DNA of 64,000 nt, taken from assembly GCA_022563395.1 (NCBI GenBank), contig JADFNM010000001.1, forward strand, positions 398,342-462,341. The letters are read 5' to 3'. The stretch comes from Patescibacteria group bacterium (GTDB lineage Bacteria; Patescibacteriota; Minisyncoccia; Minisyncoccales; UBA10102). This document shows positions 10,728 to 60,260 of this stretch, in pieces. The notes below the pieces were generated by a model. It made no database searches and was not told where the DNA came from. It saw nothing but the letters and a program-made list of their open reading frames with translations. The position numbers were made by a program, and so were the translations under genes. Position 1 is the first letter of the stretch; the number at the start of each line of letters is the position of its first letter.

Positions 10728-10746
10728 CCTGCCTGCGGCAGGCAGG
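10728..10746. repeat. GC palindrome CCTGCCTGCgGCAGGCAGG
   Basis: Perfect 19-bp palindrome. Relatives lie at 11797-11814 and, in-frame in tsaD, at 27202-27219. Confidence 0.8.
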
Positions 10747-11647: not shown

Positions 11648-11681
11648 TGTTACATTATATCTTATCTTGCCCCTGTGGAAA

Positions 11682-11814
11682 ACTAAACGAGATTTAGGTG
11701 GGGATAACTAAATGAGATTTAAGCAAAACTAAATCGATCCGCCTCAGGCGGACCGATTTAGGAAATAACTGTATTGTTCCTTAATTTACATTAAGGCCTG
11801 CCTGCGCAGGCAGG
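11682..11814. repeat. pile-up of six short palindromic mini-repeats (AT-type CTAAA/CTTAA..TTTAG/TTAAG and GC-type)
   Basis: The six are aCTAAACGAGATTTAGg; aaCTAAATGAGATTTAAg; CTAAATCGATCCGCCTCAGGCGGACCGATTTAG (a GC hairpin nested in an AT palindrome); CCTTAATTTACATTAAGG (11779-11796); and CCTGCCTGCGCAGGCAGG (11797-11814). Confidence 0.85.
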
Positions 11815-14144: not shown

Positions 14145-14152
14145 GTTCTTAT

Positions 14153-14344
14153 TATACTTGACTCAAAGCTTACCAACAAGGGCATTGTCCACCGTTGGGG
14201 CTTCCTGGCAGTCCCGGGTTGTAATCCAGCTTGAGGGAACCTTTTTGTGAACCCGCAAACCAGTCCCCTTCTTCAAGCTGTATGTACACGCAATACAACT
14301 GGCTTGAACAATTGGTAGTCAATGTATTCACGTTGTCTATCCAG
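14153..14344. repeat. 192-bp segment identical to 53586-53777 (pilin 3' end + 17 nt downstream)
   Basis: Base-by-base comparison by eye found no mismatch. Identity stops abruptly at 14345/53778. Confidence 0.9.
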
Positions 14345-14661: not shown

Positions 14662-14673
14662 TGGTTTAGTATA

Positions 14674-15912: not shown

Positions 15913-16013
15913 TTCTGTAATTCATTGATGCAACCATAGAACCCTTGGTGCTTTTCTTTGTGTGAATAATAAAGTTTGCAAACATAGATATAATAATCTC
16001 TAACGGGATTCAT

Positions 16014-17078: not shown

Positions 17079-17130
17079 ACAGTTACATTGTTAAATTGTT
17101 ATATGGCTAAATGGCTAACAATTAAACAAT

Positions 17131-17508: not shown

Positions 17509-17509
17509 A

Positions 17510-19240
17510 TCAGTCTTCGGTCACGCGAATAACCTCCTCTATTGTTGTTATACCATCAATTGCCTTTAACACGCCATCCTGACGAAGCGTGACCATGCCC
17601 TGGCGCACTGCTTCTTTTGCAATGTTTGCTTCAGACGGAGTTTGAAGAACAATGTCTGAAAGCTCGTCGGTCATTGTAAGCACCTCAAAGAGACCAATCC
17701 TACCACTGTATCCTGCGGCTCCACATTCTTTGCATCCTTTGGCAACAAACAAACTCAGGTCTTTTCCTTTGGTTGCCAGGTGCACGCTCACGGATTTTTC
17801 TTTGGCAGCAGGAATCTTTCTGAGTTCTTGCAAGATGAGCTCTTTCATTTCCGTTTTTGGCTTGATGCGTTCCTTGCAATTATCGCACAAGCGTCTCACC
17901 AAACGTTGGGAAAGGGCAATGTTAAGCGTGGTTGGAACCAGGTACTTGTCCACTCCCATGTCCAAGAGACGAGGGATGACGCCAGAAGCATTGTTCGTAT
18001 GCAAGGTGGAAAGCACAATGTGCCCTGTTAAAGCAGCGTGCACAACAAGGGAGGCCGTCTCTTCGTCTCTAACCTCACCTACCATGATAACGTCTGGGTC
18101 TTGGCGCAGAACCTGGCGTAACCCTTGGGCAAAATCGTATTGAATATCGGGCCTAACCTGGGACTGGTTCACGCCTTCCAAAAGATACTCCACGGGGTCT
18201 TCCAAACTCACAATGTTCAAGGATTCCTTGTTAATACTCTGGAGCATGGCATACAGGGTGGTGGTTTTTCCAGAGCCCGTGGGCCCAGTCACCAAAATCA
18301 ACCCAAAGGGGCGTTTCAAAGCCGCTTGTGCTTTCTCTAAACTGGAACCTCCCAAACCAAGCTCGCCAAAACCCTTTAACCCCACTTCAGGGTCTAAAAC
18401 ACGTATGGCAACCTTTTCTCCTAGGGCAGTGGGAAAAGTGGAAACACGAAAGTCTATAGAGCGCTCTCCAATGTTTGCAGAAAATCTCCCATCCTGTGGT
18501 ACTCGCTGCTCATCAATCTTTAAGTTGGAAAGAATCTTAATGTGCGACACCACGGCTTGGTGAACCCGTTTTGGCAAGAATAAAGAGGAGTACAGGTCCC
18601 CCAGCATGCGAAACCTTACTCTGAGTTTGTCTTTGGTGGGTTCAATGTGAATGTCAGAGGCCTTCCCTTCAACCGCGTTTCTCAAGATGACTGCCACCAT
18701 CTTGGTGACCGGGGCCTCCTCCACCAAACGAGCGAGTTTTTGAGCTTGGTCCTTGCCCTTTTCTTCCTTCATCTCTTCTTGGAGTTCTCCTAAGGCCTGG
18801 CTCATATCGTTCTTTTGGTTTTGATAATGGCGCATGACTGCAGCAAACTGAGAAACAGAGATGAGCTGTATCTGAAACGAAAACCCTCCCTGGCGAGACA
18901 GGAAGTTCAGCGCCTCCTTTGCTTTTACGTCCTCCGGGGCTACCATACCAACCTCAACCACTCCTGCCCGCTTAGACAAGGGAACCATGCGATAGTGAGA
19001 TGCCGCATCCTCGGGGATAAGCTCAAGAATCTTTAAGGGAATGTCTTTGGGCTCAACAGATCTCAAAGGAACCTGCAGTCCCTCTGATTTAACGCTAAAC
19101 AAGAGCTCTTCTTCCACAAGCTTCTTTTCCAAGAGTACTTCCTCAACCAACTTTTGGGACCGAGTTGCCTCCTCTTGGACTTGGGTTGCGGCCTCGCTTA
19201 AAAGAAGATTTCTCTGAACAAGGGTTTGAAGAATGTTCAT
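17510..19240 (-). CDS. pilB: type IV pilus assembly ATPase (GspE/PilB family)
   Basis: 576 aa with an N-terminal T2SSE_N-like domain, Walker A (GPTGSGKTTT) and the CxxC..CxxC tetracysteine motif (CDNCK..CKECG). Confidence 0.9.
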   Translation of the reverse strand: MNILQTLVQRNLLLSEAATQVQEEATRSQKLVEEVLLEKKLVEEELLFSVKSEGLQVPLRSVEPKDIPLKILELIPEDAASHYRMVPLSKRAGVVEVGMVAPEDVKAKEALNFLSRQGGFSFQIQLISVSQFAAVMRHYQNQKNDMSQALGELQEEMKEEKGKDQAQKLARLVEEAPVTKMVAVILRNAVEGKASDIHIEPTKDKLRVRFRMLGDLYSSLFLPKRVHQAVVSHIKILSNLKIDEQRVPQDGRFSANIGERSIDFRVSTFPTALGEKVAIRVLDPEVGLKGFGELGLGGSSLEKAQAALKRPFGLILVTGPTGSGKTTTLYAMLQSINKESLNIVSLEDPVEYLLEGVNQSQVRPDIQYDFAQGLRQVLRQDPDVIMVGEVRDEETASLVVHAALTGHIVLSTLHTNNASGVIPRLLDMGVDKYLVPTTLNIALSQRLVRRLCDNCKERIKPKTEMKELILQELRKIPAAKEKSVSVHLATKGKDLSLFVAKGCKECGAAGYSGRIGLFEVLTMTDELSDIVLQTPSEANIAKEAVRQGMVTLRQDGVLKAIDGITTIEEVIRVTED

Positions 19241-19512
19241 TATAGGGGGGGGAGCAATGGGTTGTCTCGACCAACATCCTGGGGAATTTGCGCTTTTGCC
19301 TCTGCCTCATCTAGTTTTTGGAGTATTGGATGGGAGAGAATGGAGGTATCCACCTCAACCCTGAGGGGCTGGAGAAGGATGTCGCCTGTGGGGAAAGGGG
19401 CTGTCACAAAGAATCCCCACCAGATGACAACTGCGGTAATAAAGACCACTACCCCAAGCGCGAGAATGAGGAGGCGTTGAATCTTCTTTTTCTGGAGAAA
19501 CGTTACTGCCAT
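19240..19512 (-). CDS. small membrane protein of the pilus locus (unknown)
   Basis: 90-aa ORF with a single TM (LLILALGVVVFITAVVIWWGFFV). Its stop overlaps the pilB start. Confidence 0.5.
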   Translation of the reverse strand: MAVTFLQKKKIQRLLILALGVVVFITAVVIWWGFFVTAPFPTGDILLQPLRVEVDTSILSHPILQKLDEAEAKAQIPQDVGRDNPLLPPL

Positions 19513-19530
19513 ATGTGGTTCATATGTTAG

Positions 19531-20046
19531 CTAGTAGAAATAGGTATGAAGCTGCAAAGTTACATTGAACCTTTCGGTCTCTTGGCTCCCAGAAAGGTTC
19601 AGGGATTGAAGAGAAACCATACGAGAAGCGATATTCAAACGTCCCGTCAGTTCTTTTAAAGCACTCCAGGAACCTACAAGCTCAAGTGTCACAGGAATGG
19701 TGCGTAGCTCTAAGGATTGAGCTTGGCTCTCCACTGCAGCTGAAATGTTGCGCAAGGACATTCCAGAAAGTGCGGAGCTCCGCTGCAAAAAGTCGTAGAG
19801 CGAGGGAAGCTGGGGGCCTAAGGGAAGGGCGGCCTCAACCTTTAAAAGCCCTTCTGCAAACTCCGCAAGGCTTGCCTTAACCTTTATCAAATCTGCAAAG
19901 TAGGTTTCCCGGTTTTCCAGCTCTTGCTGGCGGCCTTTAAGTTCAGACCTCAGCTGCTGGAAGGTCTGATAGTTGGGCCAGGTTAAGAAGATGCCTACGG
20001 CAACTCCTATAAAGAGCAGGATTCCAATGAGAAGGGTGCGGTTCAT
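19531..20046 (-). CDS. pilO: PilO-like pilus assembly protein
   Basis: The start is placed at the internal MNRTLLIGILLFIGVAV (20046), which abuts the pilN stop. TM plus coiled coil (QQLRSELKGRQQELENRETYF). Confidence 0.65.
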   Translation of the reverse strand: MNRTLLIGILLFIGVAVGIFLTWPNYQTFQQLRSELKGRQQELENRETYFADLIKVKASLAEFAEGLLKVEAALPLGPQLPSLYDFLQRSSALSGMSLRNISAAVESQAQSLELRTIPVTLELVGSWSALKELTGRLNIASRMVSLQSLNLSGSQETERFNVTLQLHTYFY

Positions 20047-20047
20047 A

Positions 20048-20572
20048 TTATTGAAAGAATGCGGCTGAAAATTGTATTTCCATTTGAAAGTCAACCCCGC
20101 CCTGTCCCCCAAGCTTAAGATTCGTCAGGGAAATGGAGCCTGGTTCTGACCGTGCTTCAAGCACCACAAGCTGTTCATCTAGGGCAGAGAAGGATTCTGC
20201 AGTTCCCCTAAGCTGCACAGTGTGGCTTTGCACATCAACATTCATTGAAAGAAAGGTGACCTCGGGATGTACCACGTTCTCCAAGAAAGAGAATGCGGGA
20301 AGCACGTCCTTTCGAAGCTCTACCAGTGTTGCAAAATCTTTAAGCCTGGTTCGTGCAACAAACATGTCTTGCTCCAGCTGTGCCTGCTCTGGGGTCTTTT
20401 CTGTTCTCAAGAGTATTTCTGCCTCTTTAATCTTGGTTTGAGTTCTTGATTCCAAGAAAAACAAGAGTACAAATCCTCCCACCGAAAGCACAAAGACACC
20501 AATGGACAAGGCAAAGAACACCCTCATGAACAAAGAGGAAGTTTGAGGCACTTTGGGAATGATTTCTACCAT
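20048..20572 (-). CDS. pilN: PilN-like pilus assembly protein
   Basis: 174 aa with a short cytoplasmic N-terminus, one TM and a periplasmic domain. It sits between pilM and pilO. Confidence 0.6.
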   Translation of the reverse strand: MVEIIPKVPQTSSLFMRVFFALSIGVFVLSVGGFVLLFFLESRTQTKIKEAEILLRTEKTPEQAQLEQDMFVARTRLKDFATLVELRKDVLPAFSFLENVVHPEVTFLSMNVDVQSHTVQLRGTAESFSALDEQLVVLEARSEPGSISLTNLKLGGQGGVDFQMEIQFSAAFFQ

Positions 20573-20578
20573 ATATAT

Positions 20579-21631
20579 TTACTCCAGTCCTCGTAATGCC
20601 ATTCCTACTGCGACGCAGTACGAGGGCCCCATCTCTTTTATTGTATCTTCCAACACAGGAGGATAAAAGACAGAACGAAAAGGATCAACGAATTCTATCT
20701 CTTTCTTCAGGCTCTCTTTTAAGTATTCTCTGAGCCCCGGTAGCATTGCGGACCCTCCTCCGAGAACCACCCGTTGAATTTCCTTTTCTCTGAATTCTTG
20801 GATTGCTCTTTGGATTTCCGTCACCACGGTGTCTATCAGAGGACCTAATATAGTCTTGAGTTCTTTTGACAAAAGTCCTTCGGCTATTTTCTTCTCTTCT
20901 GCTTCTTTTCGGCCAATAGACAAGGATTGCGCAATGCGTTCTGAAAGGTTTCCCCCACCAATATCAATAGACCGTGAAGACTGCAGCACTCCTTTTTTAA
21001 CCACATTAATAGTTGTGGTTTGGGCTCCCATGTCCAGCACCACAAGGGAACCTTCTCCATTTTTCAAAGAAGAGCGGATAAGACCAAAAACTTCTGCCTC
21101 TAGAGTTTGAAGCCGCAGCTTGGCCAACTTTGCTATCTCTTGATACTGATTGATTAGCTCGTTGGGGACTGCCACCATTAAAATCTTAATAGGTTCCTTT
21201 GGCAGACCAAGGCGCTTCTTGTTTAAAATCTGCCAGTCAAAGGTCACTTCAGAAAAGGGAATGGGGATGTGTTTTCTCGCCTCGTACTGAACTGCTTCTG
21301 GCAACTCCTCTTTGGTCATCGGAGGAAGCTCAAAGTGTGTGAAAAAGGAAGAGAAGTCCGGAATGGAGAATACCGCGTTCTTGGTCTCAATCTTTGCTTC
21401 CTGCAAAATGCCGCGAAGGGATCTTGCAATGTCTTTTGAAGAAAGGAGCAGGGAACTCTTTTCTGCTGTTCGAAACGGTTTGTCATACAGCATTTCAGAC
21501 CGCATCTCTCCATAGTTCTTCAAGCTTTTTTTTGCGCCCCACCGAGAAAGCTCCACCACCTTAATGGTTGAAGTTCCGATGTCAATGCCAAGAAAGCTTT
21601 TGGGAATAAATTTGAAAGAACCAAGCTTCAT
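20579..21631 (-). CDS. pilM: PilM, actin-like ATPase of the pilus inner-membrane complex
   Basis: 350 aa with LGIDIGTSTIKVVEL, LDMGAQTTTINVV and VLGGGSAMLPGL (ASKHA fold motifs). Confidence 0.85.
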   Translation of the reverse strand: MKLGSFKFIPKSFLGIDIGTSTIKVVELSRWGAKKSLKNYGEMRSEMLYDKPFRTAEKSSLLLSSKDIARSLRGILQEAKIETKNAVFSIPDFSSFFTHFELPPMTKEELPEAVQYEARKHIPIPFSEVTFDWQILNKKRLGLPKEPIKILMVAVPNELINQYQEIAKLAKLRLQTLEAEVFGLIRSSLKNGEGSLVVLDMGAQTTTINVVKKGVLQSSRSIDIGGGNLSERIAQSLSIGRKEAEEKKIAEGLLSKELKTILGPLIDTVVTEIQRAIQEFREKEIQRVVLGGGSAMLPGLREYLKESLKKEIEFVDPFRSVFYPPVLEDTIKEMGPSYCVAVGMALRGLE

Positions 21632-21802
21632 ATATACTCGCTACAGCTCGTTATTCCTTCTGGAATATACTCCCTGCAACTCGTTATTCCTTCTGGAATA
21701 TACTCCCTGCAACTCGTTATTCCTTCTGGAATATACTCCCTGCAACTCGTTATTCCTTCTGGAATATACTCCCTGCAACTCGTTATTCCTTCTGGAATAT
21801 AG
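21632..21802. repeat. 33-bp tandem repeat x5 (CTCGTTATTCCTTCTGGAATATACTCCCTGCAA) abutting the pilM start codon
   Basis: Unit starts are at 21647, 21680, 21713, 21746 and 21779, with degenerate partial copies at both ends. Each unit contains the inverted repeat TATTCC-TTCT-GGAATA. Confidence 0.95.
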
Positions 21803-22913: not shown

Positions 22914-23000
22914 CGGCGGGAGAGGGATTCGAACCCCCGATACCCTTTCAAGTATAGCAGTTTTCAAGACTGCCCCATTCATCCGCTCTGGCATCCCGCC
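22914..23000 (-). tRNA. tRNA-Ser(TGA)
   Basis: Hand fold: acceptor GGCGGGA/TCCCGCC, anticodon arm GCAGT-CTTGAAA-ACTGC, long variable arm, T-loop TTCGAAT. No encoded CCA. Confidence 0.9.
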
Positions 23001-23011
23001 TATACAATAAA

Positions 23012-23101
23012 TTAAAGCTGGTGGCGGTGGGGGTGGGATTCGAACCCACGAGAGGATTTCTCCCCTAGCACATTAGCAGTGTGCTGCTTTCAACCGCTCA
23101 G
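23012..23101 (-). tRNA. tRNA-Ser(GCT)
   Basis: Acceptor GGTGGGG/CCCCACC, anticodon arm GCACA-CTGCTAA-TGTGC, long variable arm, CCA encoded. Confidence 0.9.
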
Positions 23102-23219
23102 CCACCCCACCTAACTCTTTCTATTCTATCTTATTTCCCGAATATTTCAACCTTTGAATTTCTTCTCGGATTCTGGTATATTCAAAGCGCATATCTCCTT
23201 AAGAAGACTGAGGAGCCAT

Positions 23220-23291
23220 GCTCCCGTAGTTTAACGGACAGAATGAGGGATTGCGGATCCCTTGATACAGGTTCGATTCCTGTCGGGAGCA
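23220..23291 (+). tRNA. tRNA-Arg(GCG)
   Basis: Acceptor GCTCCCG/CGGGAGC, anticodon arm AGGGA-TTGCGGA-TCCCT, T arm ACAGG-TTCGATT-CCTGT. Confidence 0.8.
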
Positions 23292-27136: not shown

Positions 27137-28249
27137 ATGACTATTCTCGGCATTGAAACCTCGTGCGACGACACAGGCATTGCAATAGTTGAAGGCAAGG
27201 GCCTGCCCGCGCAGGCAGGAAAAACCTGGCCCCGCTTTCGTATTCTTTCTAACGTTGTTGCCTCTCAAATAGAGGTACACAAAAAGTATGGAGGAGTGTA
27301 TCCCAACCTGGCAAAACGCGAGCATATCGTGAATCTTCCCGTTGTTCTCAAAGCAGCGTTGAGAAAAGCAAAGCTCCAAAAAAAGAATCTCAAGATTGAT
27401 GCTGTGGCTGTAACCTACGGCCCGGGCCTTTCTCCTTGCTTGTGGACTGGTATTAACTTTGCAAAAGAACTGGCTAAAAAATATAGCGTTCCTTTAATCC
27501 CCGTTGACCATATGGAAGGGCATCTCTTGGTTGGTCTATTCACCGGTTTGCCTAAACGAGATTTAGGCAAGATCTTTCCTGCTGTCGTTCTCTTGGTGTC
27601 GGGAGGACACACTCAGCTCTTGCTCATGAAAGGAATGGGGAAATATGAGCTGTTGGGAGAAACCAGGGATGATGCAGCAGGAGAGGCCTTTGACAAGACC
27701 GCAAGAATTCTCGGGCTTCCTTACCCCGGCGGACCCGCCGTCGCCGCTGCAGCGGCTCTGGCGGGCAAGCCCGCCATTGCAAAACTCGCAGCCATGCCTA
27801 AATCTCGTTTAGGCATTAACCTCCCAAGGCCAATGATATACACCAAGGATCTTGACTTTAGCTTTTCTGGCTTGAAAACCGCGGTACTATATGACTATCA
27901 GAAAAGAACAAAGAAAGTGCGGGAGTCCAAAGAATATGTACGCAAAATGGCACAAGAAATTCAGCAGGCAATCATTGATGTCTTGCTCAAAAAAACACTG
28001 AGGGCTGCAAAGCAATACAACGCAAAGAGTATTATCCTGGGGGGAGGAGTTTCTGCAAATGAAGAGTTACGAAAACAGCTTAAAGAAGCGGCAGGCAAAG
28101 AAAAGATAGCGCTCTTCCTTCCAAAGAAATCATTGGCAACGGACAATGGGGTGATGCCGGCTTTTGTGGGATACTTTCTCCTTGTCAAAAAGAGGTATAC
28201 AAAAGACCCCGAGTCTATTGCCGCAGACCCCAATCTGCGCTTACAATAG
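27137..28249 (+). CDS. tsaD: tRNA N6-adenosine threonylcarbamoyltransferase TsaD (Kae1/Qri7 family)
   Basis: ILGIETSCDDTGIAIV, HMEGHL, LLVSGGHTQL and DDAAGEAFDKTARILGLPYPGGP. The ATG at 27137 is preferred over the TTG at 27101. Confidence 0.9.
   Translation: MTILGIETSCDDTGIAIVEGKGLPAQAGKTWPRFRILSNVVASQIEVHKKYGGVYPNLAKREHIVNLPVVLKAALRKAKLQKKNLKIDAVAVTYGPGLSPCLWTGINFAKELAKKYSVPLIPVDHMEGHLLVGLFTGLPKRDLGKIFPAVVLLVSGGHTQLLLMKGMGKYELLGETRDDAAGEAFDKTARILGLPYPGGPAVAAAAALAGKPAIAKLAAMPKSRLGINLPRPMIYTKDLDFSFSGLKTAVLYDYQKRTKKVRESKEYVRKMAQEIQQAIIDVLLKKTLRAAKQYNAKSIILGGGVSANEELRKQLKEAAGKEKIALFLPKKSLATDNGVMPAFVGYFLLVKKRYTKDPESIAADPNLRLQ
27202..27219. repeat. GC palindrome CCTGCCCGCGCAGGCAGG inside tsaD (encodes LPAQAG)
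   Basis: One mismatch from the intergenic copies at 10728 and 11797. It lies in a segment absent from E. coli TsaD as I recall that sequence. Confidence 0.75.
27550..27568. repeat. AT palindrome GCCTAAACGAGATTTAGGC inside tsaD (encodes LPKRDLG)
   Basis: The core is identical to the intergenic copies at 30601-30617 and 11682-11699. Confidence 0.8.
27728..27814. repeat. train of four palindromes inside tsaD (GGCGGACCCGCC; GCCGCTGCAGCGGC; GGCGGGCAAGCCCGCC; GCCTAAATCTCGTTTAGGC)
   Basis: It encodes GGPAVAAAAALAGKPAIAKLAAMPKSRLG, a loop about 13 aa longer than in E. coli TsaD. Confidence 0.75.
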
Positions 28250-28258
28250 ATGAATAGT

Positions 28259-28295
28259 TCCTTAGTCTAGCTAAGGAATTTTTAGCTAGACTAAG
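28259..28295. repeat. paired palindromes CCTTAGTCTAGCTAAGG-aattt-TTAGCTAGACTAAGG
   Basis: Variant of the AT-type family, between tsaD and valS. Confidence 0.75.
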
Positions 28296-28312
28296 GATGT
28301 ACAAGGATAACT

Positions 28313-30580
28313 ATGAACGAGTTGCCAAAAGCATACAACCCCCAAAAGACGGAAGACAAAATCTATCAACTCTGGGAAAAGAGCGGCTTTTTTAATCCAG
28401 ATGTTCTTACCAAAAAGAGGGTGGCAAAGAAAACTGCCAAACCATTTTCCATTGTTCTTCCTCCTCCAAACGTGACGGGAACCCTGCACATGGGGCACGC
28501 TGCCATGCTGGCGGTGGAAGATATCCTTATTCGCTACCACCGAATGAAAGGGGAGAAGACGCTTTGGCTGCCCGGAACCGACCATGCTGCCATTGCAACA
28601 GAATCCAAGGTAGAACAAACCCTTTTGAAAAAAGAAGGAAAGACCAAACACGACCTAGGCAGGGAAAAGTTTCTCAAGCTTGTGTATCAGTTTGCAAAAG
28701 AAAGCCACGACGCCATTGTACACCAGGTAAAAAAGATGGGGGCTTCTTTGGACTGGAGCCGTGAGGCCTATACCCTGGACGAAAAGCGGAGCCTGGCTGT
28801 GAGAACTGCCTTTGAGAGAATGTATAAAGAAGGTTTAATCTATCGCGGTGAGCGCATTGTGAACTGGGATCCCAAGATGCAGACCACCGTGTCAGATGAT
28901 GAGATTGAGTGGAAAGAAGAACAAGCCCCCTTTTACTACTTGAAATACGGGCCCTTTACCATTGGTACTGCCCGTCCTGAAACCAAGTTTGGAGACAAGT
29001 ATGTGGTCATGCACCCAAAAGACAAGAGGTACAAAAAGTACAAACAGAGAGACAAAATTGAGCTTGAGTGGATACGGGGGAAAATTACTGCAACCATCAT
29101 CAAAGATAGCTCCATTGACATGAACTTTGGAACCGGAGTCATGACCATTACTCCCTGGCACGACAGAGCCGACTTTGAGATAGCTCTGCGTCACAACCTA
29201 GACAAAGAACAAATCATTGATCTGAAGGGAAAACTCCTGCCTATTGCGGGGGAATTTACAGGCCAGCACATTACAAAAGCCCGTCCCTTGATTGTAGAGA
29301 AGCTCCAAAAGAAAGGGCTCTTAGAAAAAGTGGATAAGAATTACACCCACCGCATTGCAACCAATTCCAGGGGGGGAGGCATTATTGAACCCCAAATTAT
29401 GCGCCAGTGGTTTGTGGATGTAAAGAAAGAGTTTCCGTTTCCGCATGCAGGACTTAAGGGAATAAAGAAGGGACAGAATACCACGTTAAAGAAGCTCATG
29501 CTTCATGTGGTGAAAACAAAACAAATTGAGATTCTTCCCAAACGCTTTGAGAAAATCTACTTTCACTGGATTGAAAACCTCCGCGACTGGTGTATTTCCC
29601 GCCAGATATGGTTTGGGCATCAGATCCCAGTCTGGTACAAGGGTAAAGAAACCTATGTGGGAATACAGGCTCCCAGAGGGAAGGGCCCCGCCTTCGCCAA
29701 TGCTACGGCAGGCACGTGGAAGCAGGATCCCGACACCTTAGATACCTGGTTTTCCTCTGGTCTGTGGACGTTCTCTACCTTGGGCTGGCCCCACTTCGCG
29801 CAAAGCGCTACGCGGGGCAAGCCCGGACCAGAAAACGACCTTGCTAATTATCATCCTACTTCGGTTCTGGAAACAGGGTATGACATCTTGTTTTTCTGGG
29901 TAGCAAGAATGATTTTAATGAGCACCTACCTCGTGGGCAAAGTTCCTTTTCGCACCGTATACCTGCACGGTTTGGTAAGAGATGAAAAAGGTAGAAAGAT
30001 GTCAAAGTCGCTGGGCAACGTCATTGATCCTTTAACCATGGTAGAAAAGTACGGGGCTGACGCAACCAGACTGTCTTTGATTATTGGAGCTGGTCCCGGA
30101 AACGATATCAAGCTGTCTGAAGACCGCGTTAAAGGATACCGCAACTTTGCAAACAAACTTTGGAACATTGCAAGGTTCGTTCAAATCAACACCAAAGACT
30201 ACCCTTTAACTTCGCTCGGGGCAGGCAAAGGAAAGGCAAAACCTAAACTCTCAGCCAAAGATAGAAAGATTCTCTCTGACTTTGAGAAAACCAAAAAGCA
30301 GGTGACTAAACTTATTGAGGAATACCGCCTTTCGCAAGCCGCGGAAACCTTGTATCACTATGCCTGGCACACGTTTGCTGACAAGGTGCTGGAGGATTCA
30401 AAGAAGGTGCTGGCGCAAAAGAACCAAAGGGCTGGAAGACAAAGAGTGCTGCTTTCCATTCTCCGAGAGCTCTTGTCTCTTCTCCATCCCTTCACTCCTT
30501 TTGTCACAGAAGAACTGTATCAGCAGCTTCCCTTAAAAGATAAAAAGAAAACTTTGCTGATAGAGCAATGGCCTGTGTAA
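28313..30580 (+). CDS. valS: valine--tRNA ligase (short form)
   Basis: PPPNVTGTLHMGHA (HIGH), KMSKSLGN (KMSKS), an editing domain and the WCISRQ motif. Confidence 0.9.
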   Translation: MNELPKAYNPQKTEDKIYQLWEKSGFFNPDVLTKKRVAKKTAKPFSIVLPPPNVTGTLHMGHAAMLAVEDILIRYHRMKGEKTLWLPGTDHAAIATESKVEQTLLKKEGKTKHDLGREKFLKLVYQFAKESHDAIVHQVKKMGASLDWSREAYTLDEKRSLAVRTAFERMYKEGLIYRGERIVNWDPKMQTTVSDDEIEWKEEQAPFYYLKYGPFTIGTARPETKFGDKYVVMHPKDKRYKKYKQRDKIELEWIRGKITATIIKDSSIDMNFGTGVMTITPWHDRADFEIALRHNLDKEQIIDLKGKLLPIAGEFTGQHITKARPLIVEKLQKKGLLEKVDKNYTHRIATNSRGGGIIEPQIMRQWFVDVKKEFPFPHAGLKGIKKGQNTTLKKLMLHVVKTKQIEILPKRFEKIYFHWIENLRDWCISRQIWFGHQIPVWYKGKETYVGIQAPRGKGPAFANATAGTWKQDPDTLDTWFSSGLWTFSTLGWPHFAQSATRGKPGPENDLANYHPTSVLETGYDILFFWVARMILMSTYLVGKVPFRTVYLHGLVRDEKGRKMSKSLGNVIDPLTMVEKYGADATRLSLIIGAGPGNDIKLSEDRVKGYRNFANKLWNIARFVQINTKDYPLTSLGAGKGKAKPKLSAKDRKILSDFEKTKKQVTKLIEEYRLSQAAETLYHYAWHTFADKVLEDSKKVLAQKNQRAGRQRVLLSILRELLSLLHPFTPFVTEELYQQLPLKDKKKTLLIEQWPV
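29685..29714. repeat. GC-rich element CCGCCTTCGCCAATGCTACGGCAGGC inside valS (encodes PAFANATAG)
   Basis: It shares CCTTCGCC..A(A/T)GCTACGGC with the tRNA-flanking elements at 48302-48401 and 57732-57790. Confidence 0.7.
29789..29826. repeat. GC-rich element ..CTTCGCGCAAAGCGCTACGCGGGGCAAGCCCGG inside valS (encodes HFAQSATRGKPG)
   Basis: Same word structure (CTTCGC..AAAGC..CTACG). It sits in the loop before the YHPTSVLETGYDILFFW core. Confidence 0.65.
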
Positions 30581-30617
30581 CTAAATCTCGTTTAGGAGCT
30601 CCTAAACGAGATTTAAG
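30579..30617. repeat. paired AT palindromes CTAAATCTCGTTTAGG-agct-CCTAAACGAGATTTAAG (itself a 37-bp palindrome)
   Basis: It begins at the valS stop codon. Confidence 0.85.
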
Positions 30618-30623
30618 CGGACT

Positions 30624-32218: not shown

Positions 32219-32743
32219 TTACGTTACAATGCTCCGCAAGATAGCGGGGAATCCTGCTGCCATCAAAGCAATGGCAATGCCAATTAAGGCATAGATGAGC
32301 TTTTGTCTTGCACCCGAAACTTGTGCAGGATCCCCTCCTCCAGTCACAAACTGGAAGGCAGCCAAGACAATGTAGATTAAAGATATTGCCAGAAACACGG
32401 CAAAGACCCAGTTGGCAATGATTTGAATACGAGCAAGTATTGCGCCACCAGATTGTGGCACTTCACTCTCTGTTCCAAGACGGAAATTAGCTGGGGGAAT
32501 TTCGCCCGTACCTGAATTACAATCAGCCTTTGTTGCGTACACGGCACTCTTTGAAGCTTTGCAATAATCGCCTGCTTTTGCAGCAACACCTCCACATTCG
32601 CAGTCCGCTGTAACCGCTGCCTCACAATTACCTCCACCTACTGTGCTACACTCCGCCGCAGCAAAAACTGTGGCTGGAGCCAATAAGATCAGTAAGAAAA
32701 CTGCAAGAAAGAAAGTGAGGCCAATAGTTTGTATTCTTTTCAT
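32219..32743 (-). CDS. TrbC/VirB2-like mini-pilin paralog 5 (signal peptide, Cys-rich ectodomain, two C-terminal TM helices)
   Basis: 174 aa. The C-terminus reads ANWVFAVFLAISLIYIVLAAFQFVTGGGDPAQVSGARQKLIYALIGIAIALMAAGFPAILRSIVT. Confidence 0.75.
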   Translation of the reverse strand: MKRIQTIGLTFFLAVFLLILLAPATVFAAAECSTVGGGNCEAAVTADCECGGVAAKAGDYCKASKSAVYATKADCNSGTGEIPPANFRLGTESEVPQSGGAILARIQIIANWVFAVFLAISLIYIVLAAFQFVTGGGDPAQVSGARQKLIYALIGIAIALMAAGFPAILRSIVT

Positions 32744-32747
32744 AGCT

Positions 32748-33179
32748 TTACGTCACAATGCTTCGGAGAATCGCAGGGAAACCGGCAGCCATTAAGGCAA
32801 TGGCAATTCCTATGAGAGCGTAGATTAACTTTTGGCGAGCTCCTGACACCTGGGCAGGATCCCCTCCTCCAGTCACAAACTGGAAGGCAGCCAAGAGAAT
32901 GTAGATTAAAGATATTGCCAGGAATATGGCAAAGACCCAGTTTGCGATAAGACCGATACGGCCAAGAATTTCTGAACCTGAACTAGGTGCCTCTTCGGTG
33001 GTTCCAAGGCGAAAGCTGGTATCTGGTAGTTTGCTCTCATTAACACAAAGTCCGCCGCTACAAATGAAGCCAGTGCCGCACTCAGCGTTTGTGGTGCAAC
33101 TGTCTCCCTCTACAGCAAACACAGCAACTGGAGAGAAAATGAGCACAAAAAGGAAGATTATTCCCAAAAGTATTTTCAT
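32748..33179 (-). CDS. TrbC/VirB2-like mini-pilin paralog 4
   Basis: 143 aa. The last 47 aa are identical to paralog 5, but the codons differ. Confidence 0.75.
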   Translation of the reverse strand: MKILLGIIFLFVLIFSPVAVFAVEGDSCTTNAECGTGFICSGGLCVNESKLPDTSFRLGTTEEAPSSGSEILGRIGLIANWVFAIFLAISLIYILLAAFQFVTGGGDPAQVSGARQKLIYALIGIAIALMAAGFPAILRSIVT

Positions 33180-33212
33180 ACTATTGCCAAATATGCGTTC
33201 AAACTCGGCCTC

Positions 33213-33632
33213 TTAGGTTAATATACTTCTTAGCACATCATCTACCCCGTTGGCAAGGAGGGCAAGCCCAATGCCAATAATGGCATAGAGGAGACGCCTC
33301 TTGGCAGAAGAGACCTTTTCTGGGTTTCCCTCACCTGTTACGAACTCAAACGCCCCCCAAACGAGAAAGATAATAGAAATTGCAAGAAAGATGGCAAAAA
33401 CCCATTCTCCAACCCGTTGAATAATCTGTAGGACAGCTCCTGCCGTCTGGGGACCCTCTGGTAATTCTGCCAAGCACTCATTACTTATACTGCATGTCAA
33501 TCCAGAGTTACACGTTCCTCCGGGTCCGCACGGCTCTCCGAGTCCCTGTGCAAACACAGACCCTCCTGCCAGTACAAAAATAAGGAGGGCTGTTCCAATC
33601 CCAAAAAGTAAAATATACCTTGCGGGTTTCAT
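33213..33632 (-). CDS. TrbC/VirB2-like mini-pilin paralog 3
   Basis: 139 aa with GEWVFAIFLAISIIFLVWGAFEFVTGEGNPEKVSSAKRRLLYAIIGIGLALL. Confidence 0.7.
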   Translation of the reverse strand: MKPARYILLFGIGTALLIFVLAGGSVFAQGLGEPCGPGGTCNSGLTCSISNECLAELPEGPQTAGAVLQIIQRVGEWVFAIFLAISIIFLVWGAFEFVTGEGNPEKVSSAKRRLLYAIIGIGLALLANGVDDVLRSILT

Positions 33633-33638
33633 TAAGCT

Positions 33639-33995
33639 TTATCCTACCAGAATATTCCTCAAAATATCGTCAAAACCTGCAGCCAAGAGAGCAATGGCAA
33701 TTCCTACTGCAGCATAAATGAGCTTTTGGCGCGCCGCAGTCACCTGGGCCGGGTCACCACCACCGGTCACAAACTGGAAGGCAGCCAAAATAATATAGAT
33801 GATTGACATTGCCAGGAAAATGGCAAAGACCCAATTGCCAATTAAGGCAATGCGGTCAAGCAGGTCAGCTCCCGTTTGTGGGCCTTCAGGAAGCCCATTG
33901 GTAGGGTGTTCTCCTCCATGAACAGCCATTGCTACCGGGGCTCCCACCATGACCAGCAGACTCACCGCTAGCATAATACCAAATACTATTTTCAT
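33639..33995 (-). CDS. TrbC/VirB2-like mini-pilin paralog 2 (no Cys-rich region)
   Basis: 118 aa with GNWVFAIFLAMSIIYIILAAFQFVTGGGDPAQVTAARQKLIYAAVGIAIALL. Confidence 0.7.
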   Translation of the reverse strand: MKIVFGIMLAVSLLVMVGAPVAMAVHGGEHPTNGLPEGPQTGADLLDRIALIGNWVFAIFLAMSIIYIILAAFQFVTGGGDPAQVTAARQKLIYAAVGIAIALLAAGFDDILRNILVG

Positions 33996-34027
33996 TCTTT
34001 TTGTTTATTGCTTCAATTATGTGAAAC

Positions 34028-34041
34028 CTCGACCTTTCTGT
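34028..34041 (-). promoter_or_regulatory. 14-nt motif ACAGAAAGGTCGAG, 32 nt upstream of the mini-pilin ATG
   Basis: It matches 12377-12390 exactly in sequence and in distance to the start codon. Confidence 0.4.
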
Positions 34042-34064
34042 ATCATAGCACCAAATGGGAATTG

Positions 34065-34502
34065 TTAAAACCCTATGATAGCCCGCAAGACCACAATCAG
34101 TCCTTTAGCCAGCAAGATAATCACAAATCCTACCGCAGTCCATAAAAGAATACGCTTGGCAGTAGAGATGCGCTCTGGGCTTCCTCCTGCCGTTACAAAC
34201 ATAATACCTGCCACCACTATCATAAGAGGGGTTAACAGCAAGGCAAAGTTAAAGAGAATGTCAAGAATGTTGTTTACAATACCAGTGAAGTTCTCGGTTT
34301 GAAGAGGATTGCAGATTTGAATCGTATCTTTTTCTTGGCACAGTCCCTGTGCTCCCTCCACAGCTCCCTGACAGACCAGATCTCCATCACAATTTGCATC
34401 CGTCTCACAAGCACCACACACCGGAGCAGCGTCTATTCTTTCAACAAAGCTTCCTCCAAACAAGAAAGCTATAAACACAACCAAAATCAGGGCCTTTTTC
34501 AT
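34065..34502 (-). CDS. TrbC/VirB2-like mini-pilin paralog 1 (most divergent)
   Basis: 145 aa with a signal peptide, a Cys-rich region (CGACETDANCDGDLVC) and LLLTPLMIVVAGIMFVTAGGSPERISTAKRILLWTAVGFVIILL. Confidence 0.65.
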   Translation of the reverse strand: MKKALILVVFIAFLFGGSFVERIDAAPVCGACETDANCDGDLVCQGAVEGAQGLCQEKDTIQICNPLQTENFTGIVNNILDILFNFALLLTPLMIVVAGIMFVTAGGSPERISTAKRILLWTAVGFVIILLAKGLIVVLRAIIGF

Positions 34503-34646: not shown

Positions 34647-35645
34647 ATGAGGAGACACATGGGACTGATGGTTTTCTTGCTTGCCACTGTCTTCTTGATA
34701 GCGGCATGCGTAGAGGACCCGCAAGGACCCAAGGAAGACACCGGAGGAACAGACTCACGAGGACTGCAAGGAGAACCAGGGCCTCAAGGCATACAAGGAG
34801 AACCAGGAACTCAAGGAGTCCAAGGAGAACCAGGGCCTCAGGGCATACAAGGAGAACCAGGAACTCAAGGAGTCCAAGGAGAACCAGGGCCTCAGGGCAT
34901 ACAAGGAGAAGGAGGGGAGCCGGGGCCAAGGGGAGATAAAGGAGACAAAGGAGAGTCTCCAAGCGAAGATGAGCTCATTAAGCTCCTCAACCAGATAGTG
35001 AATCCTCCTATTCCAACCCCAGAACCCTTGGAGGGCTCCTATCAAGCTCCCAATCCTCGTTTCGTGTTTAGCTACACGACAAAAGATGACGAGGAGGAGA
35101 TAGGCGGATTAGACATCTACCTCATCTCAGACCCGGTCTTTGACCACCCTGGATGCCCTGCGCAAGCCGAAGTATTCGGCCAAAGTGCGAGAGGAGATAG
35201 CGTTCGATGCAGGTTTAATCCTTTACTCCTGCTTACGTGGGTCAAAGAATTCTCTCTGGCAAGCGAGCTTCCTGAAGAAGGTATGGAGTGGGGCGTATAC
35301 GCCACTCTCACGCCCTACCAGGAACCGTGGCCTGTGCCAGAAGAAGCACAAGGACCCAAACCCAGATTCCTCGTACAGCTTGAAGCGTTTGGGCAGGAAC
35401 ATTCAGGAAACATCCTGCTCACCGTATTCCCGAAAGGCAAAGAACCCACTCCTCGGTGTCCTGACCAGGCAGATAAAGGGAACATAATAACTGAGGGAGA
35501 AACTGAGTACTATCGTTGTATCGCGTCTCCTGTGGCCACGCTTGCGTGGCTCCAGAAGTTCTCCCTTGTTAAAGATCTCCCCCCTCGCGAGGAATGGGAG
35601 GAGACCTATGCCATCTTCCCTGCGATCTTCCCCTGGGAGACGTAA
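34647..35645 (+). CDS. collagen-triple-helix-repeat lipoprotein with duplicated C-terminal domain
   Basis: Lipobox FLIAAC, about 21 G-X-Y triplets (GLQGEPGPQGIQGEPGTQGVQ..), then two homologous ~95-aa modules (PNPRFVFSY..EPWPVPEE and PKPRFLVQL..IFPWE). Confidence 0.8.
   Translation: MRRHMGLMVFLLATVFLIAACVEDPQGPKEDTGGTDSRGLQGEPGPQGIQGEPGTQGVQGEPGPQGIQGEPGTQGVQGEPGPQGIQGEGGEPGPRGDKGDKGESPSEDELIKLLNQIVNPPIPTPEPLEGSYQAPNPRFVFSYTTKDDEEEIGGLDIYLISDPVFDHPGCPAQAEVFGQSARGDSVRCRFNPLLLLTWVKEFSLASELPEEGMEWGVYATLTPYQEPWPVPEEAQGPKPRFLVQLEAFGQEHSGNILLTVFPKGKEPTPRCPDQADKGNIITEGETEYYRCIASPVATLAWLQKFSLVKDLPPREEWEETYAIFPAIFPWET
34761..34952 (+). repeat. collagen-like G-X-Y coding repeat (54-bp unit x ~3)
   Basis: caaggagaaccagggcctcagggcatacaaggagaaccaggaactcaaggagtc is reiterated. 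Confidence 0.9.
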
Positions 35646-35700: not shown

Positions 35701-38208
35701 CTACAAACTTGCGGCTGAGGCCACCTTGTCTTTCTCGTCAAGCCTCATGATTCTGACCCCTTGCGTAGAGCGGCTTATCTTTGCAATGTCTGCAATGGCA
35801 GTACGGATAACCTGGCCCTTTCTTGAAATAACAATAAGGTCTTCTTCCTCGCCAGAAAGCGCCTTGGCATACACCAGGTTTCCTGTTTTTGCGGTAATGT
35901 TTGCGGTTTTAATGCCAGACCCCCCTCTGGTTTGTACCCGGTATTCTTTTAAGGAAGTGCGCTTGCCATACCCATTTTCCGTGAGAATCAAAAGATAATC
36001 ACCCTCTTTTGGAAGCTTAGCTTCCAAGTCCTTGGAAGCTAAGCTTCCATTATTCCCAGCAATAACATCCATGCCAACCACCTCATCTCCCTTTTTTAAG
36101 CGAATGGCCCGGGTTCCGGCCGCGGTTCTGCCCATAGCCCGTGCATCTTTTTCCTTAAACCGAATAGACTGACCCTTTTTGGTAGTGACAATAATCTGGT
36201 CTTGTCCCGTACTCTTTCTCACAATTCTCAGTTCATCCCCTTTTTTTAAGGAAATTGCAATAAGGCCGGACTTTCTCACGTTCTTAAAATCTTCCAGCGG
36301 CGTCTTTTTGACAAGCCCGTCCTTGGTAGTCATAACCATATACTTTATGCCTTGCTCAGTATCCTTTTTCCCAAGGGCAAAGAGGTTAAGAACCTTGTCA
36401 TTTGAGCTCAGCTCAACAAAGTTTAACAGGCCACGGCCTTTTGCCACCCTGGTTCCTTCTGGAATCTCGTACACGGGCAGCTGAAACACCTTTCCAGAAT
36501 CGGTAAAGACCATTAAAGAATCGTGGGTATTGCAGTACAAAAAGTGCTCTACAATGTCGTCTGACACGGTCTTCATGCCAATAATGCCCTTGCCCCCTCT
36601 TTTTTGGAGCTTGTAGGTGGCAGGGTTGATGCGCTTTATATACCCACCCTGGGTTAAGGTAATAATGGTTTCTTCTTTTGCAACCAAATCTTCTTCTGCA
36701 ATCTCCCCCACCCCAGCAACTTGTACCCTGGTTCTCCGTTCATCCCCAAAGGTTTCTTTAGCGGCCGCAAACTCTTTTTTGATGACCTCATCTATTTTCT
36801 TTGAAGATGCCAAGGTGACAGTGAGTTCTTTAATCTTTACCCTCATTTCTTTTAACTCGTCTTCAATCTTTTTGCGCTCCAGCTTTGCCAGCTGGGCTAA
36901 TCTCATATCCAGAATGGCGTTTGCTTGAAGTTCCGAAAGCCTAAAGGCTTTTTGCAATTTGATCTTTGCGTCGTCGCGGTGTTGAGCTGCCCGAATAAGC
37001 TTAATAACTTTATCAATGTTTGCCAAACACTTGTGCAAACCTTCCAAAATGTGTGCTCGGTCCTTTGCCTGAGTCAGGTCATACCGGAGGCGGCGCTGCA
37101 CCACCTGACGCCGGTGCTCTATAAAATACTGGAGAATCTCAACCAAAGAAAGAACCTTGGGCTGAATGCCGTCTACCAAAGCTAAAAGGTTTACGTGAAA
37201 GGTCTTTTGAAAGTCAGAGAACTTGTACAGACGGTTTAAAATCTTTTGGGGGTAAGCATCTCTTTGCAGATCAAAAACAATTCTCATGCCGTCCTTGTCT
37301 GACTCATCTCGAATGTCGCGGATTCCGTCAATCTTTTTTTCCTGGACCAGCTTTGCAAACTGCTTTACCAAAGATGCCTTGTTCACCTGAAAAGGAATCT
37401 CGGTAATGATAATCTGGGGTTTCTTTTGGTCTTCTGTAATCTCTGCCTTTCCTCTCATTACAATTGGTCCCTTGCCCTGAGAATAGACAGCAATGATTTC
37501 TCGTTTATTGAAAATGGTGCCTCCGGTTGGAAAGTCTGGCCCTTTGATAAAAGAAAAGAGGTCTTCGGTGGTGGCTTTTTGGTGTTCAATTAAGAAGTTT
37601 AAGGCATCAATCAGTTCCCGTAAGTTATGGGGTGGGATATTGGTTGCCATGCCCACTGCAATTCCCAGGGTTCCGTTCAAAAGCAGCTGAGGCACGGGGG
37701 AGGGAAGCACCACGGGTTCTTTTCTGGTGCCGTCGTAGTTATCAACAAAATCCACCGTATCCTTGCCAATATCACGGAGCAGCTCTTCTCCTATCTTGGA
37801 CATTCTGGCTTCTGAGTAGCGCATGGCAGCCGCACTGTCCCCATCTATAGATCCAAAGTTTCCCTGCCCATCAATTAGAGGGTATCTTAATTCAAAATTC
37901 TGGGCCATGCGAACCAAAGAATCATAGACCGCGGTGTCTCCGTGCGGGTGATAGCGTCCCAAAGTACTTCCCACTACCGTAGCTGATTTTCGGTATTTTG
38001 CAGTATGTGTTAAACCGTCCTCGTGCATGGCAAACAAGATTCTGCGGTGCACAGGTTTTAAGCCGTCTCTCACATCGGGCAGGGCGCGAGCCACAATAAC
38101 AGACATTGCATAGTCCAAGTAGGACTCGCGCATCTCTTCCACGATTTCTCGGGGCTGAACCACACCTATTGCTGCCTTTTCTTCACTATTGTCCTTGGCT
38201 TTGGCCAT
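35701..38208 (-). CDS. gyrA: DNA gyrase subunit A
   Basis: 835 aa with [15 protein letters not shown], the active-site region [10 protein letters not shown] and C-terminal beta-pinwheel repeats. Confidence 0.95.
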
Positions 38209-41076: not shown

Positions 41077-41089
41077 ATCTGCATTATAT

Positions 41090-41131
41090 CCTTAATCTCG
41101 TTAAGTTATCCACACCTAAATTTCATTTAGG
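41090..41131. repeat. AT-type palindromes CCTTAATCTCGTTAAG .. CCTAAATTTCATTTAGG
   Basis: Same family. A further imperfect copy, CCTTAATTTCATTAGG, lies at 41184-41199. Confidence 0.8.
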
Positions 41132-59998: not shown

Positions 59999-60009
59999 AT
60001 TGAACATAT

Positions 60010-60026
60010 CCTAAATCTCGTTTAGG
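60010..60026. repeat. AT palindrome CCTAAATCTCGTTTAGG
   Basis: Same word as at 30581-30596 and 27797-27813. Confidence 0.85.
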
Positions 60027-60041
60027 AACTAATGATTCTGA

Positions 60042-60260
60042 CGCATATCGCCTAAATGAAATTAAGGAATCCTTAATTTCATTTAGGAACTATTCGAGTG
60101 TTTGAACTGGGGTCCCAGTCCAAAGCTTATTATAACTTTAGAGGACTGGAAATATATGGCTGGCATGAGAGAGAAACTCTTGGAGATTAAAGTGTTGTGC
60201 CCAAGATAGCTCCCCAGTCCAAGGCTTATTATACTTTTAGAGGATGCGGAGTATATGGCT
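60042..60260 (+). repeat. 219-bp direct repeat, right copy
   Basis: See 58642-58860. Confidence 0.9.
60156..60209 (+). CDS. micro-ORF R1, MAGMREKLLEIKVLCPR
   Basis: Same frame and length as L1. The stop is TAG versus TAA. Confidence 0.45.
   Translation: MAGMREKLLEIKVLCPR

Follow-up and report, generated by a model that had tools for sequence, protein, structure and literature searches.

Hairpins of intergenic type lie in frame within loops of tsaD in a member of the Patescibacteria

Rickettsia is the textbook example of an oddity, ‘selfish’ palindromes that lie in-frame in essential genes. In the summary given by PMC10969869, Rickettsia palindromic elements (RPEs) are described as roughly 150 bp long (Ogata et al. 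2000, 2002) and as occurring both between genes and in-frame in unrelated, often essential, genes, at sites compatible with the protein fold and with several families per genome. Here, we describe elements about ten times smaller that behave similarly in the essential gene tsaD of a member of the Patescibacteria, a huge radiation of uncultured bacteria whose genomes are tiny. The DNA analysed (hereafter, the window) is a 64-kb stretch of contig JADFNM010000001.1 (positions 398,342 to 462,341), less than 10% of the 671-kb contig, and the counts of family members given below refer to the window. It contains two unrelated, mainly intergenic classes of hairpin (AT-type and GC-type), both of which are present in-frame in tsaD, as an earlier note made from the letters alone had claimed. 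Copies of the AT-type class obey a frame rule; the coding copies are palindromic at the level of DNA, lie in protein loops, are present or absent among orthologues, and vary in concert within genomes. In relatives, hairpins have been gained, lost, and homogenised in these loops more than once.

The earlier note also likened these repeats to RPEs, which is fair for behaviour but not for family. In the same source (PMC10969869), RPEs span about 150 bp (100–150 bp) and encode a conserved peptide of tens of residues, whereas the units described here measure 17–19 nt (6–7 amino acids) or, as doublets, 34–38 nt (13 amino acids). The host belongs to another phylum, there is no sequence relationship, the copies are homogenised within gene and genome, and several of them replace residues. 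When TsaD and the peptides of the patches were scanned against NCBIfam, TsaD/Kae1-type models alone were returned, a weak negative given that inclusion of the RPE models in that release is unconfirmed. The tsaD hairpins are not RPEs.

Closer in design are the repetitive extragenic palindromic (REP) sequences and their paired forms (REPINs), which are likewise short imperfect palindromes, strongly enriched between genes, often arranged as inverted doublets that form a longer hairpin, specific to a species, and similar to one another within a genome (PMC3116915, PMC3733652, PMC3333891). REPs carry a GTAG or CGTC tag, whereas the units here end in CCT..AGG and neither tag flanks them; REPs are also typically longer and are by definition extragenic, whereas the present hairpins additionally lie in-frame in coding loops. 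No transposase of the REP-associated (RAYT/Y1) kind was seen in the 64 of 671 kb inspected. Miniature inverted-repeat transposable elements differ in measuring 50–500 bp, with terminal inverted repeats and a target-site duplication; all units here are well below 50 bp. The palindromes of nematomorph mitochondria (PMC6649704) and PARCEL elements (PMC2996958) resemble the tsaD patches in being inverted repeats in coding sequence that yield acceptable peptides from both arms or strands. They differ in reaching 284 bp, or in being tandem amphipathic repeats of surface proteins, and in not being copies of an intergenic hairpin family. In the literature searched, of which coverage was incomplete, no prior description of such hairpins in Patescibacteria or the candidate phyla radiation was found.

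Two further systems invite comparison. Small dispersed repeats of cyanobacteria were reportedly described by Elhai and colleagues in 2008 (cited in PMC3116915); we know of no report, for these or for the cyanobacterial palindrome HIP1, of a frame-restricted reading of the PKxxLG type or of concerted evolution of two loops. They share with the present hairpins a palindromic design of about 8–30 nt, a location both in and between genes, and the lack of a known transposase (HIP1: PMC5861425), and they differ in sequence and lineage. DNA uptake signals form the second comparison; type IV pilus genes are abundant in the window. The DNA uptake sequences (DUS) of Neisseria and uptake signal sequences (USS) of Pasteurellaceae are short, species-specific motifs found in both orientations, often as inverted pairs after genes, at about one per kb; within genes, only permissive frames and protein segments of low conservation tolerate them, and recombination spreads them. 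The hairpins described here are alike in these features and differ in density (the exact 15-mer occurs five times in 64 kb, about 0.1 per kb), in that each unit is a hairpin, and in that several stem variants coexist.

The tsaD product scores 354 bits over its full length against the NCBIfam TsaD equivalog TIGR03723 (cut-off 296), matches TsaD chains in the PDB (E = 5e-69), and is identical to the NCBI protein P0001 (Patescibacteria), found on a 671,501-bp contig and at least eight other contigs. The nearest named relatives are Candidatus Wildermuthbacteria. H125 and H129 (HxxxH) and the PGGP of the YPGGP motif are invariant in an alignment of 35 orthologues (59–85% identity); loops were extracted from 120 orthologues, and a codon alignment included the DNA of ten relatives. 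Because three independent assemblies of one species carry identical tsaD DNA, the hairpins are not an assembly artefact. The earlier note had listed three patches of repeat-like sequence in the gene, and the coordinates, sequences, and peptides it gave are all correct. Its statement that they coincide with loop expansions also holds, with gaps of 12, 5, and 12–13 residues at patches 1, 2, and 3 relative to Escherichia coli TsaD (4YDU/4WQ5). The patches are placed in surface loops: in an AlphaFold2 model (predicted local distance difference test [pLDDT] 88; predicted template modelling score 0.87) the patches fall in coil at residues 22–32, 136–148, and 209–240, in places at low confidence. The features discussed below are collected in Table 1.

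Table 1. Positions of tsaD, its patches, and related palindromes in the window.
Feature	Position	Strand	Remarks
GC palindrome CCTGCCTGCGGCAGGCAGG, 19-nt variant	10728..10746		Intergenic, immediately downstream of pilD
pilD in-frame palindromes	11100-11126 (12-bp stem), 11281-11311 (14-bp stem)	-	Each encodes ENLTxLSF; perfect, 27-31 nt
AT hairpins (11683-11697; variant ~11709), CCTTAATTTACATTAAGG (11779-11796), GC palindrome CCTGCCTGCGCAGGCAGG (11797-11814)	11681..11814		Intergenic cluster
tsaD	27137..28249	+	370 aa; TIGR03723, P0001 identity, PDB TsaD matches
Patch 1, GC-type palindrome CCTGCCCGCGCAGGCAGG	27202..27219	+	Read (G)LPAQAG; clean 18-nt insertion
Patch 2, AT-type hairpin TTGCCTAAA-CGAGA-TTTAGGCAA	27548..27570	+	9-bp stem; core 27551-27567; read LPKRDLGK
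GGCGGACCCGCC	27728..27739	+	Codons of invariant GGPA (YPGGP motif); not a repeat copy
GC cassette CCCGCCGTCGCCGCTGCAGCGGCTCTGGCGGGCAAGCCC (PAVAAAAALAGKP)	27734..27772	+	13 codons; includes palindromes GCCGCTGCAGCGGC and GGCGGGCAAGCCCGCC
Patch 3 end, AT-type hairpin ATGCCTAAA-TCTCG-TTTAGGCAT	27794..27816	+	Core 27797-27813; read MPKSRLG; exact reverse complement of patch 2
Hairpin doublet (CCTTAGTCTAGCTAAGG...)	28258..28297		tsaD-valS spacer; orthologous spacers of relatives hold other variants
AT-hairpin doublet CTAAATCTCGTTTAGG-AGCT-CCTAAACGAGATTTAAG	30581..30618		Intergenic, valS stop to prsW start
gyrA 40-nt perfect palindrome	36010..36049	-	In-frame, hypervariable loop of C-terminal domain
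Hairpins CCTTAATCTCGTTAAG and CCTAAATTTCATTTAGG	41089..41131		Intergenic, upstream of gene at 41156
AT hairpin TCCTAAATCTCGTTTAGGA and 37-nt doublet CCTAAATGAAATTAAGGAATCCTTAATTTCATTTAGG	60009..60087		Intergenic

The AT-type hairpin is 17 nt long, with a 6-bp stem (CCT-WWR/YWW-AGG; variants in the window include CCTAAA..TTTAGG, CCTTAA..TTAAGG, and CCTTAG..CTAAGG) around a loop of 5 nt, in most cases TCTCG or CGAGA; the GC-type hairpin has the form CCTGCC..GGCAGG. AT hairpins are frequently paired as palindromic doublets of 34–38 nt (30581–30618, 58651–58683, 60051–60087, and 28258–28297). The 19-mer GCCTAAACGAGATTTAGGC is present exactly at 27550 on the plus strand and at 27796 on the minus strand, both in tsaD (chance expectation 0.01), and has intergenic relatives at 11681, 30579/30600, 41114, and 60009. 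The core 15-mer CTAAACGAGATTTAG is identical at five sites, namely the two tsaD copies, 11683, 30581, and 60011, with close variants at 30601 and 41115. Words of AT hairpins are among the most repeated 11- to 15-mers of the window, and CTAAACGAGATTTAG takes third place by copy number in the lists of 11-mers and 13-mers, behind words of the related AT2 hairpin.

When only strict members of the family are counted, the non-coding part of the window, roughly 14.5% of it, contains about 14, vs two in tsaD and two extended variants in pilD (prepilin peptidase); pooling all variants gives about 20 occurrences in 64 kb. The gene set used for this contrast excludes mechanical open reading frames (ORFs) that overlap tRNA genes. 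Hairpins at 48523–48559 and 57746–57764, at first scored as coding, were rejected as such because Rfam shows that those ORFs overlap tRNA genes, and a loose definition (5-bp stems starting with CT) was discarded because it swept in random coding hairpins. Rfam has no family for the hairpins themselves. Across 21 coding and intergenic hairpins, 96% of the cells compared are paired and double changes are seen in four of six stem pairs, figures that are biased upward because the sequences were chosen as hairpins.

In the orthologous tsaD–valS and valS–prsW spacers of relatives, a hairpin of AT design is kept and its inner sequence differs from genome to genome. The 3' arm of a spacer hairpin (..AAGGA) often coincides with the ribosome-binding site (RBS) of the next gene, and in the tsaD–valS spacer (window 28250–28312; L056 3186–3239; L064 1811–1866) it lies on the likely valS RBS, so these hairpins could mask that site. 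The GC palindromes at 10728–10746 and 11797–11814 bracket pilD, and the junctions at 11797 and in tsaD both read AAGG/CCTGCC...GGCAGG/AA, where slashes mark the palindrome's ends; the shared junction hints at a preferred target.

Patch 1 alone is a clean insertion. Removal of its 18 nt restores AAG GGA AAG ACC TGG, the KGKTW of relatives, and thus leaves a clean six-codon indel; no target-site duplication is found there past an ambiguous G or GG, the gain being exactly 18 nt. Its intergenic relatives are the palindrome at 11797 (one mismatch; 0.03 matches expected by chance) and the 19-nt variant at 10728. LPAQAG occurs in only two of the 120 orthologues, P0001 and the non-sister P0017 (L001), and in L001 the patch is the perfect palindrome CCTGCCTGCGCAGGCAGG, identical to the window's intergenic copy at 11797. 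In the model, patch 1 occupies the turn between strands 12–21 and 33–43 (mean pLDDT 66 for residues 21–30). In L062 (2352–2397, tsaD) and P0120, this turn holds a different, private hairpin insert, RNVQNQRFLRCRNV (arms GCAACGTA/TACGTTGC).

The remaining patches bear out only in part the claims that all are copies of intergenic repeats and all are insertions. Patch 2, in the coil after helix 125–135, is a copy by sequence but replaces residues: the window has TGLPKRDLGKI where the nearest relatives, P0006 and P0009, have TGTKKQAQ, a net gain of three codons. Patch 3 had been described as a train of four palindromes, and only the fourth of these is an intergenic-type repeat. The first, GGCGGACCCGCC, encodes part of a motif in which G198, G199, and P200 are invariant across the 35 orthologues, and the same 12-mer also codes for GGPA in an unrelated gene at 31519. 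For the second and third, GCCGCTGCAGCGGC and GGCGGGCAAGCCCGCC, the window contains no copy between genes. The fourth is read as MPKSRLG, a segment of the same length as the LAKTPLG/D of relatives and as the E. coli loop; the equal length means that the PKSRLG piece is not an insertion, by the refutation that the earlier note itself had specified. The length gain of patch 3 is that of the GC cassette, which makes the patch 12 codons longer than in orthologues of form B (GGPAIAKLAAMPKxxLGIN). P0001 resembles form A (GGPAVAAAAALAGKPAIAIK) joined to form B. The cassette is modelled as helix 198–208, and beyond it the patch is coil, with pLDDT below 50 at residues 213–222.

The cassette is confined to tsaD among 64 loci and is present in eight of the 120 orthologues. 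Among the window, L056, L062, and L063, cassette DNA is 92–100% identical vs 62–80% for the rest of tsaD, and at third codon positions 11–13 of 13 match vs a fraction of 0.39–0.64 elsewhere (binomial p 1e-4 to 0.1). As a DNA-level module, the cassette is separate from the hairpins and is patchily shared among tsaD alleles, most simply via recombination between lineages.

The AT hairpins in tsaD follow a simple frame rule. Of the three frames of the 17-mer CCTAAACGAGATTTAGG and of its reverse complement, frame 1 runs into TAG and frame 2 into TAA, which leaves frame 0 alone open; that frame reads P-K-x-x-L-G in either orientation, and both tsaD copies use it. PKRDLG and PKSRLG are hence the two strands of one DNA unit, and because a single open frame yields PKxxLG in both orientations, the coding copies that survive all look alike. 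Whether the palindromes follow from the peptides was assessed by resampling, with the protein fixed and synonymous codons drawn from the window's own usage (300 resamples). tsaD contains three hairpins with stems of at least 8 bp vs 0.27 expected, and none of the 300 resamples reaches three, so palindromy is a property of the DNA and not of the peptide alone. The corresponding figures are two vs 0.02 for pilD (stems of at least 9 bp; 0/300) and three vs 0.31 for gyrA (0/300); valS has none in this test. The tsaD hairpin observation is real and non-random.

Among the 120 patescibacterial TsaD sequences, 27 have [PS][KR]xxLG in loop 2 or 3, and 18 of these 27 have doublets, which always consist of a unit and its reverse complement. 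PKxxLG states are scattered over the neighbour-joining tree beside ‘empty’ sisters (P0011 vs P0014; P0004 vs P0005). Close relatives lack the repeats: the TsaD of P0006 and P0009, the nearest of all, has no PKxxLG. Where both loops contain hairpins (ten orthologues), most pairs are one unit or its reverse complement: both loops of L059 hold an identical 38-nt doublet, CCTAGGCGAGACCTAGG-AACT-CCTAGGTCTCGCCTAGG, and both loops of L060 hold CCTAAGCGAGGCTTAGG doublets, with the order reversed between the loops. In L064, loop 3 contains a doublet of CCTAAACTCGGTTTAGG, and L057 departs by two single bases, each G-U compatible on the sense strand. Shared 10-mers were also sought between the loops of tsaD and the remainder of each locus (50 loci); this comparison was set aside as too noisy, the regular expressions having missed many distant TsaD. 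Other patescibacterial TsaD (among P0025–P0120) carry AT-rich, repeat-like peptides such as KIQDTKYKI and FSISNSQFSI, of matching kind in both loops.

In-frame palindromes are not restricted to tsaD. The two in pilD, which lies at 10781–11647 on the minus strand, are one base from the intergenic hairpin at 55343–55365. ENLTxLSF stands at both sites in most pilD orthologues, and palindromes with altered loops persist in L084, L085, and L086 (60–77% identity). The pilD palindromes are old, unlike the tsaD patches. We considered that they might be a mere protein repeat and rejected this; they are hairpins with 12–14-bp stems related to that at 55343, ancient and not recent. Taken with the species-specific variants of the tsaD loops, their persistence points to continuing homogenisation or selection rather than one-off selfish hits. 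PilD orthologues (P0255–P0277) also contain hydrophobic peptides, FGISNLFRISNFEF and FGIWNLEFGI, which look like an opposite-strand reading of similar repeats. The gyrA palindrome occurs once in the window, and orthologues at 90% and at 87% identity do not have it. In the dprA linker of another genome (L081 6304–6342; Tara Oceans contig CEPX01038710.1) we found an in-frame doublet of exactly the AT variant of the window (SKRDLGAPKSRLG); the intergenic CCTTAACTAAGTTAAGG hairpins of L081 are also present in the genome of P0015. valS has three GC-rich, lineage-specific inserts that five relatives lack, GPAFANATAG (29684–29713), AQSATRGKPGP (29798–29830), and PLTSLGAG (30203–30226); the second has GGGCAAGCCC in common with the tsaD cassette, and at the third site relatives have other GC-rich peptides.

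Our preferred explanation, to which we give an even chance, is that the hairpins are REP-like elements at home in intergenic spacers, with copies written into tolerant loops of tsaD and kept palindromic by copying. Their home would be the short spacers after and between genes, where they probably act like REPs or terminators. Copies would have come to occupy three loops of tsaD that are structurally tolerant, selection would retain only the stop-free frame, and gene conversion, template switching between copies, or re-insertion would keep the copies palindromic and family-like within a genome. We infer a copying mechanism because the copies are both palindromic and similar to the family of their own genome; it would also account for the presence of one species-specific variant in both tsaD loops. 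On this view, the copies in coding sequence would be passengers that TsaD tolerates, with no functional role in the protein.

Several results weigh against this explanation. Simple insertion fits patch 1 only, and plain transposition does not account for patch 2 and PKSRLG, which replace residues. A single 1.1-kb gene accounts for all three coding copies of both classes in the 64 kb, and across a wide clade the loops affected are the same; such clustering suggests target preference, allele recombination, or function rather than random insertion. Conservation of ENLTxLSF in pilD, with palindromes at 60–77% identity, is as compatible with selection on the hairpin as with passive copying. A scan of about 50 ORFs of the window against Pfam, which covers less than 10% of the contig, revealed no transposase of any kind. 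A metagenome scan with CCTAAACGAGATTTAGG gave 19 matches, mostly chance hits in unrelated organisms (GC content 32–64%), and the only informative one was the dprA doublet of L081. Three of the matches, in unrelated metagenome contigs (L066, L069, and L079), are a conserved motif of ribosomal protein L13, GM(L/M)PKSRLG, encoded by exactly CCTAAATCTCGTTTAGG; because this motif is ancestral there, a PKxxLG peptide can be palindromic by codon accident. That accident leaves the two exact, opposite 19-mers and their intergenic copies unexplained.

The most substantial rival, which we nonetheless judge rather unlikely, is that the hairpin is a functional nucleic-acid signal (for mRNA processing, stability, or translation control, or as the site of a hairpin-specific protein) that is selected wherever it is placed. 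The perfect 12–14-bp stems of pilD last at 60–77% identity though loop bases change, and stems co-vary (AAA/TTT, TAA/TTA, AGG/CCT, AAG/CTT, and TGG/CCA) around the near-constant TCTCG/CGAGA loop. Hairpin position is conserved in the tsaD–valS and valS–prsW spacers, with the 3' arm often on the next RBS, and the departures in L057 are G-U compatible. Yet, a single tsaD mRNA holds both orientations (27550 plus, 27796 minus), the nearest tsaD relatives do entirely without hairpins, Rfam offers no match, and the lone mismatch of patch 1 is C-A on the sense strand. Another source of the patchiness, in place of repeated insertion, could be homologous recombination that exchanges short tsaD segments among related lineages, with the GC cassette as a sideways-spreading allele; we consider this unlikely. 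The elevated identity of cassette DNA, its confinement to tsaD, patch states that are homoplastic on the tree, and the hybrid-like appearance of P0001 all favour exchange; the cassette flanks are not unusually similar, however, and intergenic copies and species-specific hairpin variants would remain unexplained. Such exchange complements the preferred explanation and does not exclude it. An idea that would go further, and which we consider quite unlikely, is that the CCT-WWR/loop/YWW-AGG hairpins are not inert passengers but a species-specific recognition signal spread by molecular drive, either a signal of the DNA-uptake type or the substrate of a hairpin-specific enzyme. These bacteria, which bear a type IV pilus, ComEC, and DprA, are presumably naturally competent. 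If true, this would cover together the ‘dialects’ of species, the pairing in inverted form after genes, the occurrence in both orientations, the confinement to the one open frame in tolerant loops, the homoplastic tsaD alleles, and the long-term perfection of the pilD stems.

Two further alternatives were considered. Palindromes might arise locally where loops are unconstrained, through fold-back or template-switch replication errors that perfect imperfect inverted repeats, with nothing copied between loci. The gyrA palindrome (single in the window, in a hypervariable loop, and absent at 90% and 87% identity) looks like a product of this kind, as does the private hairpin of L062 and P0120 at the patch-1 turn. 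Local errors do not explain an identical 15-mer at five loci with unrelated flanks, one 18-mer shared by the tsaD of L001 and an intergenic site of the window, or a matching doublet in the dprA of another genome, and we regard this alternative as very unlikely. Least probable of all, in our estimation, is selection of the peptide, with a P-K-x-x-L-G loop useful to TsaD (e.g. in tRNA binding) and palindromy as a by-product because CCT AAA .. TTA GG is self-complementary. The L13 motif encoded by the identical 17-mer shows that this can happen, the loop-3 segment has the length of its counterparts in relatives and a similar (A/S)-K-x-x-L-(G/D) pattern, and some hairpins still arise with the peptide fixed (mean 0.27). 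Against it stand the 300 synonymous resamples, none of which attains the observed count, and the exact reverse complementarity of the two loops over 19 nt, which includes a flanking base outside the P..G codons. Nor would selection of the peptide account for doublets that are always a unit plus its reverse complement, for identical DNA between genes elsewhere, or for the absence of the motif from the nearest relatives.

The preferred explanation gives a testable account of the origin of the lineage-specific loop insertions that are common in Patescibacteria proteins. The informative features are the rule that only the PKxxLG frame is free of stops, the concerted state of two loops, and recurrence over many orthologues. 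The dispersed family itself could be a terminator, an RBS mask, an uptake signal, or an enzyme substrate. In practice, such segments mislead alignment and annotation, as they seem to be low-complexity peptide inserts and are features of the DNA.

Other features of the window include a type IV pilus cluster at 10781–21631 (pilD, five tandem pilin paralogues, PilC, two PilB/T ATPases, a response regulator, PilO, and PilM), with more pilin-like genes at 32219–34502. Between pilM and a divergent methyltransferase gene, a 33-bp unit is repeated in tandem (21632–21801; 5.2 copies, 97% matches). A collagen-like gene has 27/54-bp tandem repeats (34760–34910), the copy number of which varies between assemblies of the same species (332 vs 314 amino acids). 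Sixteen tRNA genes are arranged in small arrays (22914–23291, 46328–48471, 55262–55438, and 57788–58033), and the mechanical ORFs that overlap them are not genes. The low-GC tail at 58927–61792 (34–39% GC) may be an acquired defence islet; it contains a SIR2-like gene and a restriction-modification pair of the ScaI type.

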